Part shown: one piece after another, positions 4,696 to 55,326 of the stretch | How positions within the stretch are numbered: the stretch's first letter is position 1 | How the letters are laid out: every line of letters begins with the position of its first letter | Translations under genes and position numbers: made by a program | DNA from: Clostridia bacterium | Lineage (GTDB): Bacteria; Bacillota; Clostridia; Oscillospirales; Acutalibacteraceae | Direction: 5' to 3' | NCBI GenBank assembly: GCA_017433225.1 | Contig: JAFRHS010000044.1 | Location: 28,317 to 92,316 of the forward strand | DNA length: 64,000 nt | Notes under the pieces: generated by a model | Told to the model about the DNA's origin: nothing | The model's database searches: none | What the model saw: only the letters and a program-made list of their open reading frames with translations

Positions 4696-5598
4696 GAGAC
4701 ACTGAAAAAGCCGATTTTTCGCCTTTTCCAAAAACCACGTAGTTACGCCATTTGTGCAGTTTGTGCAGTTTAGTATCGTTTTTTCCCGGGAAAACAAAAT
4801 TAAAAAAAATATAGAATAAAACTGCACAAACTGCACATTTCAGCCTAATGAATATTATTCATTCGCTTATTTGCCGTAAAACAACGGTAAATTGTGTATG
4901 AATATGCAAAACAGCGCTTGTTTATGCATATATCCACCCTCTTTTATGCATAACTGCAGCTGGAGCGGGTGGAGAATTATACAAAATACGTCTTTTATCC
5001 TAAATGGTTTTAGGCGGCTCAGCTGCTAGCCGCCTGGGGCTGCTTATAGTACAGTGGATCAATCGCCCTGGGGTTCACAATATGATATTATTGCCATAGA
5101 CCCGTTAGGGTCGTATCAGCCTTTCTGTTTCCCGGTCCTGTATCGCCACAGGGCCGGGATCTCTTTTTAAGTTCGAACATATCGAACCTTTCTTTTTTTA
5201 GGGGCGCACCTTCCGCGAGATACTCCCCTTTTTTTGGGGCTGTATTATCTGACGATGCACCCCTTTTTTAGGGGCTCAGAAATGACGGAAAGCTCTTTTT
5301 AAGGTGGCAGGTATAGAAGGATGGCATTTCACGTAATGCCTGCCTACGGCCTTATTTGAGGCAATAATACACTTGCCCACTGCCCAGGCGGAATATAGGC
5401 AATACTTCAAAATGGGATCAAGTGGTATAACTTTGGTATAACTTTGTATACCAGTTTTTCCAGCACCGACGTAGTTACGCCGTTACCTGGGCTTGATTTT
5501 GGTATACATTTTGGTATACACCATAGCGAAAAATAGGGGCAAAGTACGATAAGTTGTACATTTTATTTTCTGATTTGGAAAAATAATATTTATGAAAA
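4696..5598. repeat. Non-coding iteron/inverted-repeat field, probable replication origin of the island
   Basis: Tandem TTTGTGCAG x2 (4751-4771) with an inverted copy at 4819-4837 around an AT-rich core. TTTATGCATA x2 (4921-4951). Five YCYTTTTT(T)AGGGGC-like units about 30-38 bp apart (5161-5300). Four GGTATA(A/C) units (5424-5522). Three ACGTAGTTACGC copies. Confidence 0.5.
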
Positions 5599-50817: not shown

Positions 50818-50853
50818 AACACGGAGGACCGTTTCAGTCCTCCGTGTTGTTTT
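50818..50853. terminator. Bidirectional terminator overlapping the recombinase 3' end
   Basis: AACACGGAGGAC CGTTTCA GTCCTCCGTGTT. Confidence 0.7.
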
Positions 50854-51820
50854 GTGCGATCTTGTTCAGCGGGTTCGCGTCGGTCGCGGATTTCAGCTGT
50901 TCGTTGACCACGTGTGTGTAGATCTGTGTGGTGCCGACGTTCTCGTGTCCGAGGATCTCTTTGAGAAGCAGGACGTCGACGTCTCCGTACTGGTACATGA
51001 GCGTGGCCGCGGTGTGGCGGAGCTTGTGGACCGAGTAGCCCTCGAGTCCCGCTTTTTCCAGCGTCGTGTACACGATGTGCTGGACCGTCTTCGGCGAGAT
51101 GCGCTGTTTGCGGTTGCTGAGGAACAGCGCCTCTTTGTCCTTGACGCCGTCGACCGGCCGGACTTTCATGTACTCGTTGATGGCGGCGATACACGCGTCG
51201 TTGAAGTAGATGGTACGTTCTTTATTACCTTTTCCGGTGATCTTGACCGTGTTGTCGTCCCGGATGTCCGTGTAATTGAGGCTGACGAGCTCTGAGAGCC
51301 GCATCCCGCAATTCAGGAAGAGAGTGATGATCGCGTAGTCGCGCTCCTTATTGGGCCCCTCAGCGGCCTTTGAGAGCAGTTTCATGCTCTCGTCGAGTGT
51401 GAGGTACTTCGGCAGGGACTGCTTCATTTTGGGCGTCTCCAGCTCCTGCATGGGGTTTTCGTCGATGACGTGTTTCTGGACCGTACAGTATTTGAAAAAC
51501 GCGCGCAGGGTAGAGACCTTCCGGGCACGGGTCCGGGCGGAGTTCTCCCGCTCGTCCTTGCACCAGGAGAGGAACGCGTAAGCGTCTGCCAGCGTGATCC
51601 GCCGGATGTCCTTCTTGTCGATGTCCGAGATGTCGATCTCGTCAAAGGGAGTGTCCTCCGGTACATCGCCCCAGTACTTCTTCAGAAAGCGGAAGAAGAG
51701 GCGAAGGTCCGATGCGTACTCCGAAATGGTATTCTTGGACTTGTTGCGGATGGCATCCATATAGTTGAGGAATTCCACCATCAGAACGGGGAAGTCCCTG
51801 TAATCCTGCCGGGTGATCAT
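50834..51820 (-). CDS. Tyrosine recombinase, XerC/XerD-like
   Basis: R...HKLRHTAAT...LGHENVGTTQIYTHV catalytic signature. ATG 51820 is preferred because the upstream in-frame ATG (51871) lies inside a TATAAT box. Confidence 0.8.
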   Translation of the reverse strand: MITRQDYRDFPVLMVEFLNYMDAIRNKSKNTISEYASDLRLFFRFLKKYWGDVPEDTPFDEIDISDIDKKDIRRITLADAYAFLSWCKDERENSARTRARKVSTLRAFFKYCTVQKHVIDENPMQELETPKMKQSLPKYLTLDESMKLLSKAAEGPNKERDYAIITLFLNCGMRLSELVSLNYTDIRDDNTVKITGKGNKERTIYFNDACIAAINEYMKVRPVDGVKDKEALFLSNRKQRISPKTVQHIVYTTLEKAGLEGYSVHKLRHTAATLMYQYGDVDVLLLKEILGHENVGTTQIYTHVVNEQLKSATDANPLNKIAQNNTED

Positions 51821-52081
51821 ACTGTTCCAGTCCTTTCGTGGGCGATGTGCCGCGTCTGGCAAATTATACAAAATATTTTGAAATATCTCAAGTGGTTCCC
51901 CGGCGGGGAAGGGCGCTAATGTGGTTTTTCAGCGGTGACTGTCATCATTTTTTCAAGATGCGTTACATATATGACAAAGAGTCGGAAAACGTCCTTTTAA
52001 TCTGCACAACTTATGATATATTTTAGCGGGATAAATAATTGTTAATGTATTCATATTGGGATTCATGGAGGAGAAAGATCT

Positions 52082-53023
52082 ATGGCAATCATTCGTCTGT
52101 CAGACACGTTCCGTTCCGCATCGCAGGACCCGACCGATGTCCAGTATTATATCTGGTACGATGCGGACGTTGCTCCGAAAGCCTGTCTTCAGCTGACGCA
52201 CGGTGTGGCATGTTACATCGACCGCTATGAGGAACTGGCTCGGTTCTTCGTGAAAAACGGCTACGCGGTCTGCGGCATGGACAATCTCGGTCACGGACGC
52301 ACCGCCGGTCTTGAACGGCTCGGCATCATGCCGGACGACGGCGCGGATGCGGTCATCGAAGACATGCACACGCTGACCGGCATCATGAAAGAAAAATTCC
52401 CGGGACTGCCGTACATCCTGCACGGCCACAGCCTCGGATCCATCTACGCGCGGTGCTACTGCATCAAATGGTCTGACGAACTCGACGGCGCCATCTGGGA
52501 AGGTTCCGGCTGGGTCCCGTCGCTGGTCACGAAACTCGTACCGGTCATGCAGAAGATGTCGGAAACCGGCGGCCCGGAGAACTCCAACAAGCTGATGGCC
52601 GATGCCGGGAACGTCATCCTGGACCTCGGCATTTTCCCGCCGGAGACGCTGCTCGCGTGGCTGTCGAAGGACATGGTCAACCAGAAGCTGTACATCGCGG
52701 ACCCGTACAACGGCGCTCCCGCGTCGAACTCCATGAACCGTGTGCTCATCGAGAACCTTGCCAAGTGCAGCAAAAAGGACTGGTTCAGGAGCATCCGTCA
52801 CGACCTGCCGGTGTTCATCTGTTCCGGCGACAAAGACCCGATCGGCCTCTGGAGTTTCGGCATCCGCCGTCTGTTCCTGACCTGCGTCGACTATCTCGAC
52901 AACATGACGTTCAAGCTGTATGACGGCCGTCACGAGATCCACAACGACTTCTGCAAAGACGAAGTCTACCGCGATCTGCTCGATTTCTGCAACGAAGTCG
53001 CAGACGGTACCTACAAAGCATAA
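52082..53023 (+). CDS. Alpha/beta hydrolase (lysophospholipase / monoacylglycerol-lipase-like)
   Basis: LTHGVACYIDRYEE, GHSLGS elbow, C-terminal DGRHEIHND. Confidence 0.8.
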   Translation: MAIIRLSDTFRSASQDPTDVQYYIWYDADVAPKACLQLTHGVACYIDRYEELARFFVKNGYAVCGMDNLGHGRTAGLERLGIMPDDGADAVIEDMHTLTGIMKEKFPGLPYILHGHSLGSIYARCYCIKWSDELDGAIWEGSGWVPSLVTKLVPVMQKMSETGGPENSNKLMADAGNVILDLGIFPPETLLAWLSKDMVNQKLYIADPYNGAPASNSMNRVLIENLAKCSKKDWFRSIRHDLPVFICSGDKDPIGLWSFGIRRLFLTCVDYLDNMTFKLYDGRHEIHNDFCKDEVYRDLLDFCNEVADGTYKA

Positions 53024-53036
53024 GGTGTGGCATAAG

Positions 53037-53070
53037 AAAAACCTCTGGGATCCTCCAGAGGTTTTTGTTT
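53037..53070. terminator. Bidirectional terminator
   Basis: AAAAACCTCTGG GATCCT CCAGAGGTTTTT. Confidence 0.8.
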
Positions 53071-53076
53071 TTGTAT

Positions 53077-53349
53077 TCAGTCGCGGAAGTTGAATTCGTC
53101 CCTGTGCTCTTCCTGGAACTGGCGGTACAGTTTGTCGAGCAGTTTCCGGTCTTCCACGATGTCAAAGTCCTGTTCGCCGTCGTCGTTCTCAACGACCTGC
53201 AGGATCAGCACTTCCGCGTTCTCCAGATCGCCCTCGAGGGGGAGGAGCGCCACATAGTTGCAGTGGTCGTATTCAATATAGTCGAGGAATTCGAAGGGGA
53301 CTTCGTTTCCGTCTTCGTCGTAAAGCACGATCAGGTTTTCGTTGTTCAT
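53077..53349 (-). CDS. DUF1292-family small acidic protein
   Basis: MNNENLIVLYDEDGNEVPFEFLDYIEYD pattern. AAGGAG Shine-Dalgarno. Confidence 0.75.
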   Translation of the reverse strand: MNNENLIVLYDEDGNEVPFEFLDYIEYDHCNYVALLPLEGDLENAEVLILQVVENDDGEQDFDIVEDRKLLDKLYRQFQEEHRDEFNFRD

Positions 53350-53399
53350 CGAAAAACTCCTTTGCAGTCTTTGGTATGGAGACATTGTAACGGATTTTG

Positions 53400-54150
53400 A
53401 AAGCGTTCGCAACCGGAAGAGGAGTCTCACCCACACTTGTTAAATATTTCACAAATAGGGGACGTTGACCGGTCAATAGGGGCCCTATGGCTGTTTTCCC
53501 GGGTGTTTGGCCGGAACACCACACGGTTTTGACCTGTTTTGAGGCGATTTAAGGCTCAAAAAGTCTAAAAAACCGCGTAGATTAGCCAAAAATTGGCATT
53601 TTAGAAGGCCTAATCTGGCTCTGAAAGCCTTAAAATGGCCCAAATATACAAATTCAACCAGAATTTTTCGCACAGAGGCTGGTTCGTTCCAAAAAAACTG
53701 GTTGAATGAGGAAAATCGCTCAAATGCCATTCAACCAGAATTTTTGAGACAGAGGCTGGTTCGTTCCAAACATTTCTATTGAATGGAGCCAATAGAAGCT
53801 TTTGAAACGAACCAAGGTTCGAATGAAATAACGTAGTTGAATGAAAGAAACAGATCGAATAGAAAGAAATAAAATGAAGGAAGCATTGAAACTAAAACTG
53901 TTATGGAATGAGAAAAAGAAAAACACAACTGCAAAAACGGAAATAAATGCAGAAGTGTAATTACTATATAATATAAATATACCAAAAACGGCGTAGATAC
54001 TGGGGTTTCGGGCAAAGCCTGTCTAGGGGCTGTATTCTGAAATTCCTCCCCTCAATTATACAAAACATTTATTTTGTATAATTATATGGAAAATTTTCAG
54101 GGGCAGAAATACAGGATTTCCGGCCATTCCCCCTCGGTAAATCGCCAAAA
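53400..54150. repeat. AT-rich non-coding region with nested direct and inverted repeats
   Basis: Two 42-nt direct repeats (53652-53693, 53729-53770; 39/42 identical) with an internal AACCAG/CTGGTT hairpin. An inverted partial copy near 53800. Many TGAATGA-like units. A 12-bp perfect inverted repeat at 54054-54083. No convincing ORF. Confidence 0.7.
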
Positions 54151-54193
54151 AAATACACTTAGAGGACTCTTATTGATCACTCTAAGTGTATTT
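54144..54193 (-). terminator. Intrinsic terminator of the glnA2-ANTAR-HAD operon
   Basis: AAATACACTTAGAG / CTCTAAGTGTATTT 14-bp stem with a U-run on the minus strand. Confidence 0.7.
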
Positions 54194-54718
54194 CTTTTTA
54201 CCGATATTGATGAGCTTCAGCCACCACGGCGGGTTCTGCAGCATGTTCAGCGCCGGTTCGATCATGGTTTCCCGGAACCCGTCGACTTTGGGGTCGGTCT
54301 TTATCCACCACTCGGACAGCCGGTATTTCTCCCAGAAAAAATTGGCGTCGTCCAGGATGACGAATCCATCGACCCGGTATGGATATTTCCTCAGATATTC
54401 CAGGACTTCTCCCGGCCGGTCCCTCGTTTCCGACACTCCGGTCTTGTCGTATAGCTTGATGCCGTACATCGCGAGACCGGTATCGACGATCTTCCCCCCT
54501 ACATCGCGCAGCTTCGGATCTCTGTTCCAGCCGTAGCGCCAGGAGGACGTGAGGATGATGTTCACCGTGTTGCCATGTTGTTCGGACAATTCGATGAGGC
54601 GTTTCACCCGTTTGATCGCTTCCGGGTCCAGCGGGTTCTCGGTGATGCTTTTGACCGTATCGTAAAAGGACATGGAATTGATGACGCCGTCGACATCCAT
54701 AAAAATGAGGTAATGCAT
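54182..54718 (-). CDS. HAD-superfamily (HAD_SAK-like) phosphatase-fold protein
   Basis: MHYLIFMDVDGVINS (DxDG motif). AAGGAGG Shine-Dalgarno before ATG 54718. Confidence 0.6.
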   Translation of the reverse strand: MHYLIFMDVDGVINSMSFYDTVKSITENPLDPEAIKRVKRLIELSEQHGNTVNIILTSSWRYGWNRDPKLRDVGGKIVDTGLAMYGIKLYDKTGVSETRDRPGEVLEYLRKYPYRVDGFVILDDANFFWEKYRLSEWWIKTDPKVDGFRETMIEPALNMLQNPPWWLKLINIGKKKYT

Positions 54719-54738
54719 GGGCGCCTCCTTCCCTGTCC

Positions 54739-55326
54739 TCAATACTTGCCGTATGTGTTGATGATGTTCTGCGCGATTTCCGCCTTCTTCTTGCAGTTGT
54801 CCATCGCGGCTTTCTCGATGTAACGGTGCGCTTCCTGCTCGGTGAACTTTAGGTTCTCCATGAGGAGCCCTTTGGCGCGATTCACGAGCCGGATCTCTTT
54901 CATCTTCTCTTCGAGAGACGCGGTCTTCTGTTCGAGCGCCTTGAGCCGCTGCTGCGTGGCCACCAGGAGTTTCATCGTCTGGAACGCCTGCTGTGCGGTA
55001 CAGGGCCGCGGCAGCGTCAGGACACCGTACTCTTCCACTTTATAGGAGACCTGCTCGTAGACGTCGTTCTTGACCATCATCATGACGCCGCAGCTCTGGT
55101 TCTGGGCAAGCTCGATGGCGAGCTCCGTGCCCATCTCATCTTTGAGCGGCGCGTTGATGACGACGATGTCGACGCTCCGGTCGACGAGCATCCGCTGTGC
55201 TTCTCCGGCGGAGTGGACGCACGTCAGCGGTGAAAACTGTTCCTTGGGCAGGATCTTCTGAAAGAATTCGACCGCTTTGTCGGTCGTCGAGACGACCATG
55301 ACGCTGGCAGCCTGTTCCTGTCTCAT
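54739..55326 (-). CDS. ANTAR-domain RNA-binding antiterminator with pseudo-receiver domain (NitR/AmiR-like)
   Basis: C-terminal coiled coil plus ANTAR (IRLVNRAKGLLMENLKFTEQEAHRYIEKAAMDN). The receiver lacks the acidic pocket and phospho-Asp (VVSTTD, DIVVINAPL). ATG 55326 has better spacing to AGGAGG than 55332. Confidence 0.8.
   Translation of the reverse strand: MRQEQAASVMVVSTTDKAVEFFQKILPKEQFSPLTCVHSAGEAQRMLVDRSVDIVVINAPLKDEMGTELAIELAQNQSCGVMMMVKNDVYEQVSYKVEEYGVLTLPRPCTAQQAFQTMKLLVATQQRLKALEQKTASLEEKMKEIRLVNRAKGLLMENLKFTEQEAHRYIEKAAMDNCKKKAEIAQNIINTYGKY

Follow-up and report, generated by a model that had tools for sequence, protein, structure and literature searches.

Genes and features at the locus

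We analysed a 64,000-nt stretch of an Acutalibacteraceae genome of the order Oscillospirales (assembly GCA_017433225.1, contig JAFRHS010000044.1, positions 28,317 to 92,316 of the forward strand; hereafter the window), in which an ~830-bp gap, with a DUF1292 gene at 53077-53349 and a HAD-family gene at 54182-54742 on either side, both on the minus strand, holds a perfect palindrome at 54054-54083. The observed anatomy, copy number, conservation and chromosomal position of this palindrome, its linkage to a gene for an Xer-like tyrosine recombinase and the catalytic residues of that recombinase lead us to regard it, with good confidence, as the chromosome dif site of a single-recombinase Xer system resembling XerH/difH and XerS/difSL. 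A sequence-only reading of the same DNA had pointed out the sharp drop in GC content across the gap, the 12-bp inverted repeat with its 6-bp spacer and the lack of any plausible open reading frame (ORF), and all three hold: GC content is 0.29-0.40 over 53600-54100 against 0.55-0.62 in the flanking genes, the arms of the repeat are identical at every position, and the ORFs inside the gap are all 81 aa or shorter and of low complexity, with frame-breaking indels separating relatives across it. The features that carry the argument are as follows.

54054-54083, minus strand: putative dif core, with 12-bp perfect arms AATTATACAAAA and TTTTGTATAATT around the 6-bp centre CATTTA
54045-54053, minus strand: conserved G-rich flank, GAGGGGAGG, with AGGGGA at 54047-54052
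50834-51820, minus strand: Xer-like tyrosine recombinase, 328 aa from the ATG at 51820 (the ORF extends to 51871)
51863-51891, minus strand: predicted xer promoter, TTGAGA-17-TATAAT, near-consensus

A palindrome with the layout of a dif site and its recombinase

Sites for dimer resolution are recognised by their size, palindromy, low GC content and non-coding position near the replication terminus and, in single-recombinase systems, by forming a module with the recombinase gene (PMC2731167, PMC5357621, PMC9765430). Read on the minus strand, the window's palindrome is TTATACAAAA-TAAATG-TTTTGTATAA, with a centre of the A-rich polarity that is common to its relatives, and it has the 28-30 bp, the inverted arms of ~11 bp and the centre of 6-8 bp of the dif layout, which is kept in more than 140 relatives. 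It is intergenic, lies in low-GC DNA and occurs once in its own genome, which is 97% complete. In this clade the palindrome widens to imperfect 29-nt arms (54037-54100).

The recombinase matches the Phage_integrase family (E 8e-40), with the NCBIfam models for XerC, XerA and XerD scoring strongest, and all six catalytic residues (R-K-H-R-H-Y) align with those of XerD (Protein Data Bank, PDB, 1a0p) and XerA (4a8e), which marks it as Xer-type. Of 401 genomes of the order, 353 carry a single-copy orthologue of it. The own genome encodes two integrase-family genes, the second of which is a weaker, 408-aa match outside the window that is not Xer-like, and a search of that genome for dif sites of the Bacillus subtilis or Escherichia coli type found none within 7 mismatches. 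Separately, chain 14 of PDB entry 9i5v (401 residues), labelled 'Ribosome-associated translation inhibitor RaiA', aligns with the recombinase over its full length (E 2e-30), and that label looks wrong.

Conservation and copy number

Pattern searches covered 401 high-quality genomes of the order. With the window's centre kept and up to two mismatches allowed, 77 genomes matched, nearly all of them once; with the 6-bp centre left free and up to one arm mismatch, 122 matched, about 114 of which carried exactly one site. Since the reversed-pattern controls matched in 0 and 2 of the 401 genomes, respectively, the palindrome is conserved far beyond chance. The arms are invariant and the centre is free (CATTTA, TATTCA, TTTTTA, TCTTTA, TTTGCA and others), and the rare arm changes are symmetric, occurring in both arms together (TTATACATAA..TTATGTATAA, TGATAC..GTATCA, CTATAC..GTATAG). 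Among 40 relatives searched, about 20 genomes, drawn from several families of the order, keep the ~40 bp that surround the palindrome at 91-100% identity, and three close species aligned with most of the gap at 71-78% identity. A scan for the exact pattern with one genome per species matched at least 119 contigs; among the matches listed, nearly all belonged to Acutalibacter/Acutalibacteraceae, Ruminococcus, Oscillospiraceae, Butyricicoccus, Agathobaculum, Anaeromassilibacillus and unclassified Clostridia metagenome-assembled genomes (MAGs). Cultured relatives with the site include an Acutalibacter isolate and Anaeromassilibacillus senegalensis.

Two outliers of that scan carry tandem arrays, one a Spirochaetia MAG (OZ244590.1; L056, 1256-1445 and 7780) and the other a Flavobacterium (L099, 1548-1615). 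Both consist of tandem 41-42-nt repeats holding palindromes with the same arm words, T[TG]ATACAAAA-N6-TTTTGTATAA, and, being multi-copy in unrelated lineages, they are a different kind of element. Within the window itself, a 14-nt copy of a dif arm and centre edge (AATTATACAAAATA, 4975-4988, E ~0.17) lies in a non-coding field of a tRNA-Pro-linked island and may be due to chance or could be an Xer site used by the tRNA-Pro-linked element. In one relative (G007), the part of the island that contains dif is present twice, on contigs C129 (L003) and C81 (L153), at 76-80% identity to the window; the two copies could be a strain mixture in the MAG or a real duplication.

Position opposite the origin and converging polar words

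In all four closed genomes that bear the site (G033, G063, G385 and G266), it lies 0.50-0.52 genome lengths from dnaA, i.e., opposite the origin gene, and the GC skew of relatives changes sign where the site lies, within the very bin that holds it in G009, G033 and G266.

G385, same family: the minus-to-plus GC-skew switch brackets dnaA and the plus-to-minus switch brackets the site, within a 97-kb interval
G009, same genus: positive skew in 19 of the 20 10-kb bins leading to the site, negative skew in all 5 that follow
G033, other family: 10 of 10 20-kb bins positive left of the site, 9 of 10 negative right
G266, other family: 10 of 10 20-kb bins positive left of the site, 10 of 10 negative right

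An unbiased search for skewed words yielded a family, AGGG[GA]A[AG], that resembles the KOPS (FtsK-orienting polar sequences) and lies 95-100% on the leading strand, flipping at the palindrome (G009:C16, 304-562 kb; G033:C1, 946-1346 kb; G266:C1, 1413-1813 kb). The leading-to-lagging counts in G009 are 35:0 for GAAGGGGA and 68:2 for AGGGGAA, the latter dividing into 53:1 left of the site and 1:15 right of it, and the flip falls between 503,445 and 506,104, with the site at 504,872; in G033, AGGGAAG counts 43:2, and in G266, GGGGAAGA counts 39:1. Most copies of these words (50 of 70) lie inside genes, and the canonical Shine-Dalgarno word GGAGG shows a much smaller skew, so gene starts do not account for them and a Shine-Dalgarno artefact was ruled out.

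The window's own contig, which lacks dnaA (found on another contig of the genome), has the same arrangement in its oligomer polarity. AGGGGA counts 33:8 left of the site and 3:13 right of it, the best breakpoint being at 82.0 kb and the site at 82.37 kb of the contig, and a hexamer strand polarity trained on the first 50 kb is positive up to the site and negative in the next nine 2-kb bins. Plain GC skew of this contig was dropped as a terminus test in favour of oligomer polarity and the skew of relatives, and a strand map of long ORFs proved too noisy at this GC content.

Both FtsK_SpoIIIE and FtsK_gamma domains are present in the own genome. Given that an FtsK gamma domain is encoded and that the polar words point at the site from both chromosome arms, FtsK is probably involved in resolution at dif, and AGGG[GA]A[AG] is a candidate FtsK-guiding word for the order.

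Linkage of the site to xer

A dif site and its xer gene in one module are a hallmark of the single-recombinase systems XerS/difSL and XerH/difH (PMC2731167, PMC5357621, PMC9765430). Among 147 single-site loci, 74 include the xer orthologue, and in 72 of these xer has its 5' end turned towards the site, the median distance being 55 bp; in most genomes the xer beside the site is the only Xer-like recombinase gene. The site is more than an operator of the gene, because it is fully conserved where xer lies 2-38 kb off or on another contig. The same full conservation makes it scarcely credible that the palindrome is a mere xer operator or promoter, or the site of some other transcription factor: its overlap with a -10-like box, its place directly upstream of xer in most genomes and a perfect dyad symmetry that would suit a dimeric repressor are outweighed by this, by a position at the skew switch opposite dnaA with converging polar words, for which an operator has no need, and by an 11-6-11 build with invariant arms and a freely varying 6-bp centre, which is the pattern of a tyrosine recombinase.

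The dif arm ends in TTGTATAAT, giving a TATAAT box, and many relatives begin xer 14-30 nt behind the site, so that dif probably doubles as the xer promoter and the recombinase probably regulates its own gene in most relatives. In the window, the distance between dif and xer is 2.2 kb, and it is 0.5 kb in some species of the genus. Here, one dif arm and part of the centre are repeated in the spacer and -10 box of the xer promoter (AAATATTTTGTATAATT, 51878-51862), a possible autoregulatory half-site, and the same-genus locus L008 has a collapsed dif-like palindrome, ATGATACAAAATTGTATCAT, before xer and 0.5 kb from dif. The arm copy and the collapsed palindrome suggest an insertion of DNA between dif and xer in this genus, amounting here to 2.2 kb that include the DUF1292 gene and a hydrolase gene.

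A G-rich flank that gives a symmetric site polarity

We oriented 135 sites by their centres alone, taking the strand with more A than T, and found in the resulting position matrix that the polarity of the centre predicts the side of the G-rich flank (122 against 9). The oriented consensus is 5'-AA TTATACAAAA T[AG]AA[AT]A TTTTGTATAA TT n A GGG [GA] A G, and the flank is one outward-pointing copy of the chromosome's KOPS-like polar word: in G009, G385, G033 (both sides), G266 and the own contig, the G-rich strand of the flank points away from dif, against the direction of the words on the same side of the chromosome.

In 23 of 138 sites xer begins directly behind the flank, which then is its ribosome-binding site. 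As a full account of the flank, a ribosome-binding site was rejected, with about 90 of the 138 sites having no ORF there. The xer gene lies on the other side of the site in about one-third of the loci that contain it, and because of this, and because so few sites have xer right behind the flank, the flank belongs to the site itself. No element downstream of the flank is shared among the genera compared.

The arms are identical, so the direction of the site would be set by the A-rich centre and the G-rich flank. One conceivable role for the flank, which we put forward tentatively and think rather improbable, is that this stretch, 3 bp from the arm and with the consensus A-GGG-[GA]-A-G, is a docking or stop site for the FtsK gamma domain; FtsK held at one arm could then pick which pair of identical recombinase monomers fires first. 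If true, docking at the flank would overcome the symmetry of a perfectly palindromic dif that is served by a single Xer, and one 40-bp unit would fuse a recombination site, a motor signal and the promoter and ribosome-binding site of xer.

Weighing the dif assignment

Several points weigh against reading the palindrome as dif. The recombinase falls under every NCBIfam equivalog cut-off, with 228 bits against 335 for XerC (TIGR02224), 208 against 330 for XerD (TIGR02225), 146 against 267 for XerS (NF003462, matched in two stretches) and, as a near miss, 216.2 against 220 for archaeal XerA (NF040815). Five families (f5, f7, f9, f14 and f25) own an xer orthologue and lack the exact arms, and a few genomes have two or three sites. 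The plain GC skew of the own contig is weak and lacks the expected plus-to-minus switch at the site, its sign going from minus to plus near 55-70 kb, and only oligomer polarity turns there. The 57-nt repeats described below, the purine-rich spacer and the conserved G-rich flank are left functionally unexplained, and the case as a whole rests on sequence and comparative evidence.

With these points counted, the reading that we favour for 54054-54083 is that it is very probably a dif site, of a variant that so far has had no description for the Oscillospirales. A search of the accessible literature found no description of this type of site, nor of a single-Xer system in Clostridia. Predictions of dif in Firmicutes were made with the B. 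subtilis model only (Kono 2011), and a 2022 paper gives XerS and XerH as the only known bacterial single-recombinase systems and adds XerL.

The island around the palindrome

Outside dif and its flank, the gap and its borders hold the following features.

53652-53708, minus strand: repeat unit 1, 57 nt, ATTCAACCAG-N36-CTGGTTGAAT, with the minus-strand core CCTCTGTGCGAAAAAnnCTGGTTGAAT
53729-53785, minus strand: repeat unit 2, which shares 82% identity with unit 1 and whose outer arm is degenerate
53786-53980, no strand assigned: spacer, purine-rich on the plus strand, with GAATGAAATAA-type short repeats and an inverted partial copy at 53802-53815
54147-54197, minus strand: terminator-like hairpin, ACACTTAGAG ... 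CTCTAAGTGT then a T run, a 94% complementary inverted repeat
53437-53454, no strand assigned: Rex-type palindrome, TTGTTAA-ATAT-TTCACAA, directly upstream of the DUF1292 promoter
53384-53412, minus strand: predicted DUF1292 promoter, sigma-70-like, TTGCGA-17-TACAAT
53077-53349, minus strand: DUF1292 gene (Pfam PF06949, E 4e-12), between dif and xer in this clade

The repeats had been described as two 42-nt direct copies (53652-53693 and 53729-53770) with mirrored arms, ATTCAACCAG at 53652 and CTGGTTGAAT at 53697-53706, an inverted partial copy TTTGAAACGAACCA near 53800 and a purine-rich stretch with GAATGAAATAA-type units. We recover each of these, the direct copies being identical at 39 of 42 positions (BLAST E 1.5e-9) and widening to 57-nt units, and the partial copy lying at 53802-53815. 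The plus strand is purine-rich over 53700-53999, with an AT skew of +0.29 to +0.44 and a GC skew of +0.21 to +0.28; the spacer is poorly conserved, with indels even among close relatives.

The terminator-like hairpin sits at the 3' end of the HAD-family gene (HAD_SAK_2 Pfam match) and, with its T run, probably ends the upstream operon before dif; a scan for consensus terminators did not list it. The 53437-53454 box, which we take to be Rex-type from the consensus of Rex operators, also precedes xer in the same-genus relatives L008 and L010 by alignment, and a gene for a Rex-type regulator is present in the own genome (G000:C14:4868-5011); redox regulation of xer or of the DUF1292 gene would be unexpected. 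A tRNA scan of the gap found no tRNA.

The motif ATCTACGCGGTTTTT occurs twice in the island and once on contig C55, before a LuxR-type gene. In the relative G002, at least five contigs terminate in one shared element of ~130 nt or more (L192-L196), each copy of which begins directly after a gene terminator and includes 21 nt identical to island positions 53567-53587 (GGCTAATCTACGCGGTTTTTT), followed by a TGGTATAAT promoter-like box; this element is probably the common upstream region of a multi-copy operon such as that for rRNA. Rfam scans of C55 and of the G002 repeat ends gave no match.

Other readings of the island

The sequence-only reading had offered three explanations for the island as a whole: a dense protein-binding region, the decayed end of a mobile element or a structured non-coding RNA. 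The first comes closest to the evidence, in that the island holds the palindrome, which bears all the hallmarks in sequence of a recombinase target, a Rex-type operator, two promoter-like sites and a terminator; the proposal had neither recognised the palindrome as dif nor drawn a link to the recombinase gene. Outside dif, the gap reads as lineage-specific spacer containing a terminator, a Rex-type box, the DUF1292 promoter and a genus-specific 57-nt repeat.

Some of that spacer may have no function at all. We see a fair-sized, though clearly minority, chance that the island, minus palindrome, flank, terminator and DUF1292 promoter region, is neutral filler of a kind typical of terminus regions and that the 57-nt repeats are a functionless local duplication. 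Indels are many between the conserved blocks, even in species that are 74-78% identical overall, and the repeats are confined to this place in the genome and to this genus, with one or two units per species, always on the flank side of dif. Some constraint is nonetheless indicated by the 3' half of the unit, since CCTCTGTGCGAAAAAnnCTGGTTGAAT is nearly invariant over 11 copies from seven species while its surroundings decay.

An alternative, which would account for the origin of the island, is compatible with a dif site at 54054-54083 and which we consider unlikely, is that 51879-54044, between dif and the xer promoter and with the AT-rich island, the DUF1292 gene and a hydrolase gene in it, is the decayed and fixed remnant of an element inserted at or next to dif, similar to IMEX (integrative mobile elements exploiting Xer), which are a known consequence of Xer systems (PMC5357621, PMC9765430). 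Room for such an old insertion is left by the partial dif copy (one arm and some of the centre) that stands in the xer promoter at 2.2 kb from dif, by the collapsed palindrome of L008 and by the fact that dif directly abuts xer in most other genera. That dif-like sites can bracket modules in the genus is seen in G011:C62, with two direct dif-like sites around a 2.5-kb module. Set against this, the xer-proximal copy, with too short a spacer and a poor second arm, cannot be recognised as a second recombination site; genes for mobility, replication or phage functions are absent from the segment; and the G-rich flank stayed with dif, which Xer integration within the centre does not predict. The repeats do not help the case either, as neither the island nor the 42-mer has a second copy in the own genome, which speaks against the earlier suggestion of a mobile-element end.

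The dif-like sites of the G011:C62 module (L152, 322-347 and 2860-2885) are without the G-rich flank and have a common 5' flank, AAATTGTTGT, and between them lies a 500-aa ORF with no Pfam match, beside a RelB/YafQ toxin-antitoxin pair; G011 has its main dif on a different contig. This layout recalls the dif modules of Acinetobacter plasmids.

Less probable still is a structured non-coding RNA or long regulatory leader, which would run on the minus strand from the TATAAT box in the dif arm through the 57-nt hairpins to DUF1292 (to xer in relatives). It would draw on the TTGTATAAT end of the arm and the translation of xer 14-30 nt behind it in relatives, on a minus-strand hairpin in unit 1 that folds better than shuffled sequences (z = -3.2), on three single-base changes in the 5' arm (L007 and L008) that keep G-U wobbles on the minus strand only, and on a hairpin with a T run ~70 nt behind dif in L006, L008, L010 and L011. 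Yet a permissive Rfam scan of 52900-54400 brought no family to its gathering score (the best reached 24 bits against 51.5, and the best matches were miRNA models at chance level, as were the rest), the other units fold no better than shuffles, and the helix of the unit shows no real covariation, with 86% of cells paired against 85% in shuffles and one double change. The 5' arm of the unit is gone in L010 and L006, which retain the 3' part; folding of the 93 nt that follow the flank does not exceed that of shuffled sequences (z = +0.7); and DUF1292 has its own promoter. The structured RNA that the sequence-only reading had proposed thus finds no backing here.

Proposed mechanism and significance

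In the mechanism that we propose, one Xer-type recombinase would resolve chromosome dimers at the 54054-54083 palindrome at the end of replication. Each site would presumably take up two recombinase monomers on its identical arms, after which two sites would synapse and strand exchange would take place over the 6-bp centre. That the recombinase binds and recombines the site, depends on FtsK and regulates its own gene are all predictions from sequence.

The Oscillospirales, with the Acutalibacteraceae, Ruminococcaceae, Oscillospiraceae and Butyricicoccaceae, rank with the most abundant bacteria of the gut and rumen, and a literature search found no account of chromosome dimer resolution in the order. 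A dif site with a single recombinase would provide an exact marker of the terminus with which to orient and check assemblies and MAGs of the order, a candidate integration site for mobile elements that exploit Xer and, as a compact pair of site and recombinase, a possible genetic tool in anaerobes that are hard to engineer. With symmetric arms, a centre that sets polarity and an abutting, inverted KOPS-like word, it is also a testable case for directionality with a single Xer and for control by FtsK. Most of what looked odd in the island would come down to ordinary chromosome housekeeping and lineage-specific spacer.

Comparison with known systems

The nearest parallels in organisation are the single-recombinase modules. 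Like the system described here, XerH/difH of Helicobacter and Campylobacter has one recombinase with the site usually beside its gene, and both sites are low in GC, non-coding and at the terminus. The Campylobacter site, GTATTGAAAA-CTATAA-TTTTCAAAT (PMC2731167, Table 2), compares with TTATACAAAA-TAAATG-TTTTGTATAA here, both having inner arm ends of A4 and T4 and a variable 6-bp centre. The recombinases, at 328-345 aa here and 354-362 aa for XerH, are both longer than XerC and XerD, and their similarity is weak (PDB 5jjv, E 1e-13), XerA (4a8e, 1e-30) and XerD (4e-29) being closer. The arms are perfectly symmetric here, whereas those of difH are imperfect (PMC5357621), and no counterpart of the conserved G-rich flank is described for difH. 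XerS/difSL of streptococci and lactococci is likewise a single-recombinase module of Firmicutes with the site beside the gene, and works with FtsK (PMC1914069, PMC2965235); the inner arm ends of difSL, GAAAA and TTTTC, are as here, but at 31 bp it has a longer centre and asymmetric arms, and the XerS model gives the recombinase 146 bits against 267. In XerL/dif of the Legionellales, a single-recombinase system recognised only recently, the site has uninterrupted 10-12-bp inverted repeats and is non-coding and near the terminus, as here (PMC9765430); the lineage is unrelated, and in Legionella more than 400 kb separate xerL from dif, against an ancestral adjacency of gene and site here.

With XerC/XerD-dif, as in E. 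coli and in B. subtilis (CodV/RipX, with SRS, SpoIIIE recognition sequence, words), the system has in common the 28-bp 11-6-11 plan at the junction of the chromosome arms, the converging G-rich polar words, the FtsK gamma domain and the R-K-H-R-H-Y residues. The classical sites use two recombinases and distinct arms with inner ends ATAA and TTAT, whereas here there is one recombinase and the arms are identical, ending in AAAA and TTTT. Cre/loxP offers a parallel in symmetry, with symmetric arms, a direction that comes from an asymmetric spacer and one recombinase on both arms, as here; unlike the present site, loxP has 13-bp arms and an 8-bp spacer, serves the maintenance of a phage plasmid and has no system of polar words. 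Archaeal XerA/dif pairs a single recombinase with a 28-bp dif, and XerA is the best-scoring solved structure for the window's recombinase (4a8e, E 1e-30), but XerA acts without FtsK at a site that is often not opposite the origin (PMC5357621), whereas an FtsK gamma domain and polar words are found here. By sequence, then, the recombinase is nearer to XerA, XerC and XerD than to XerS or XerH while scoring below all curated thresholds, and the Oscillospirales site differs from difH, difSL and the Legionellales dif in its sequence, its identical arms and its abutting polar-word flank.

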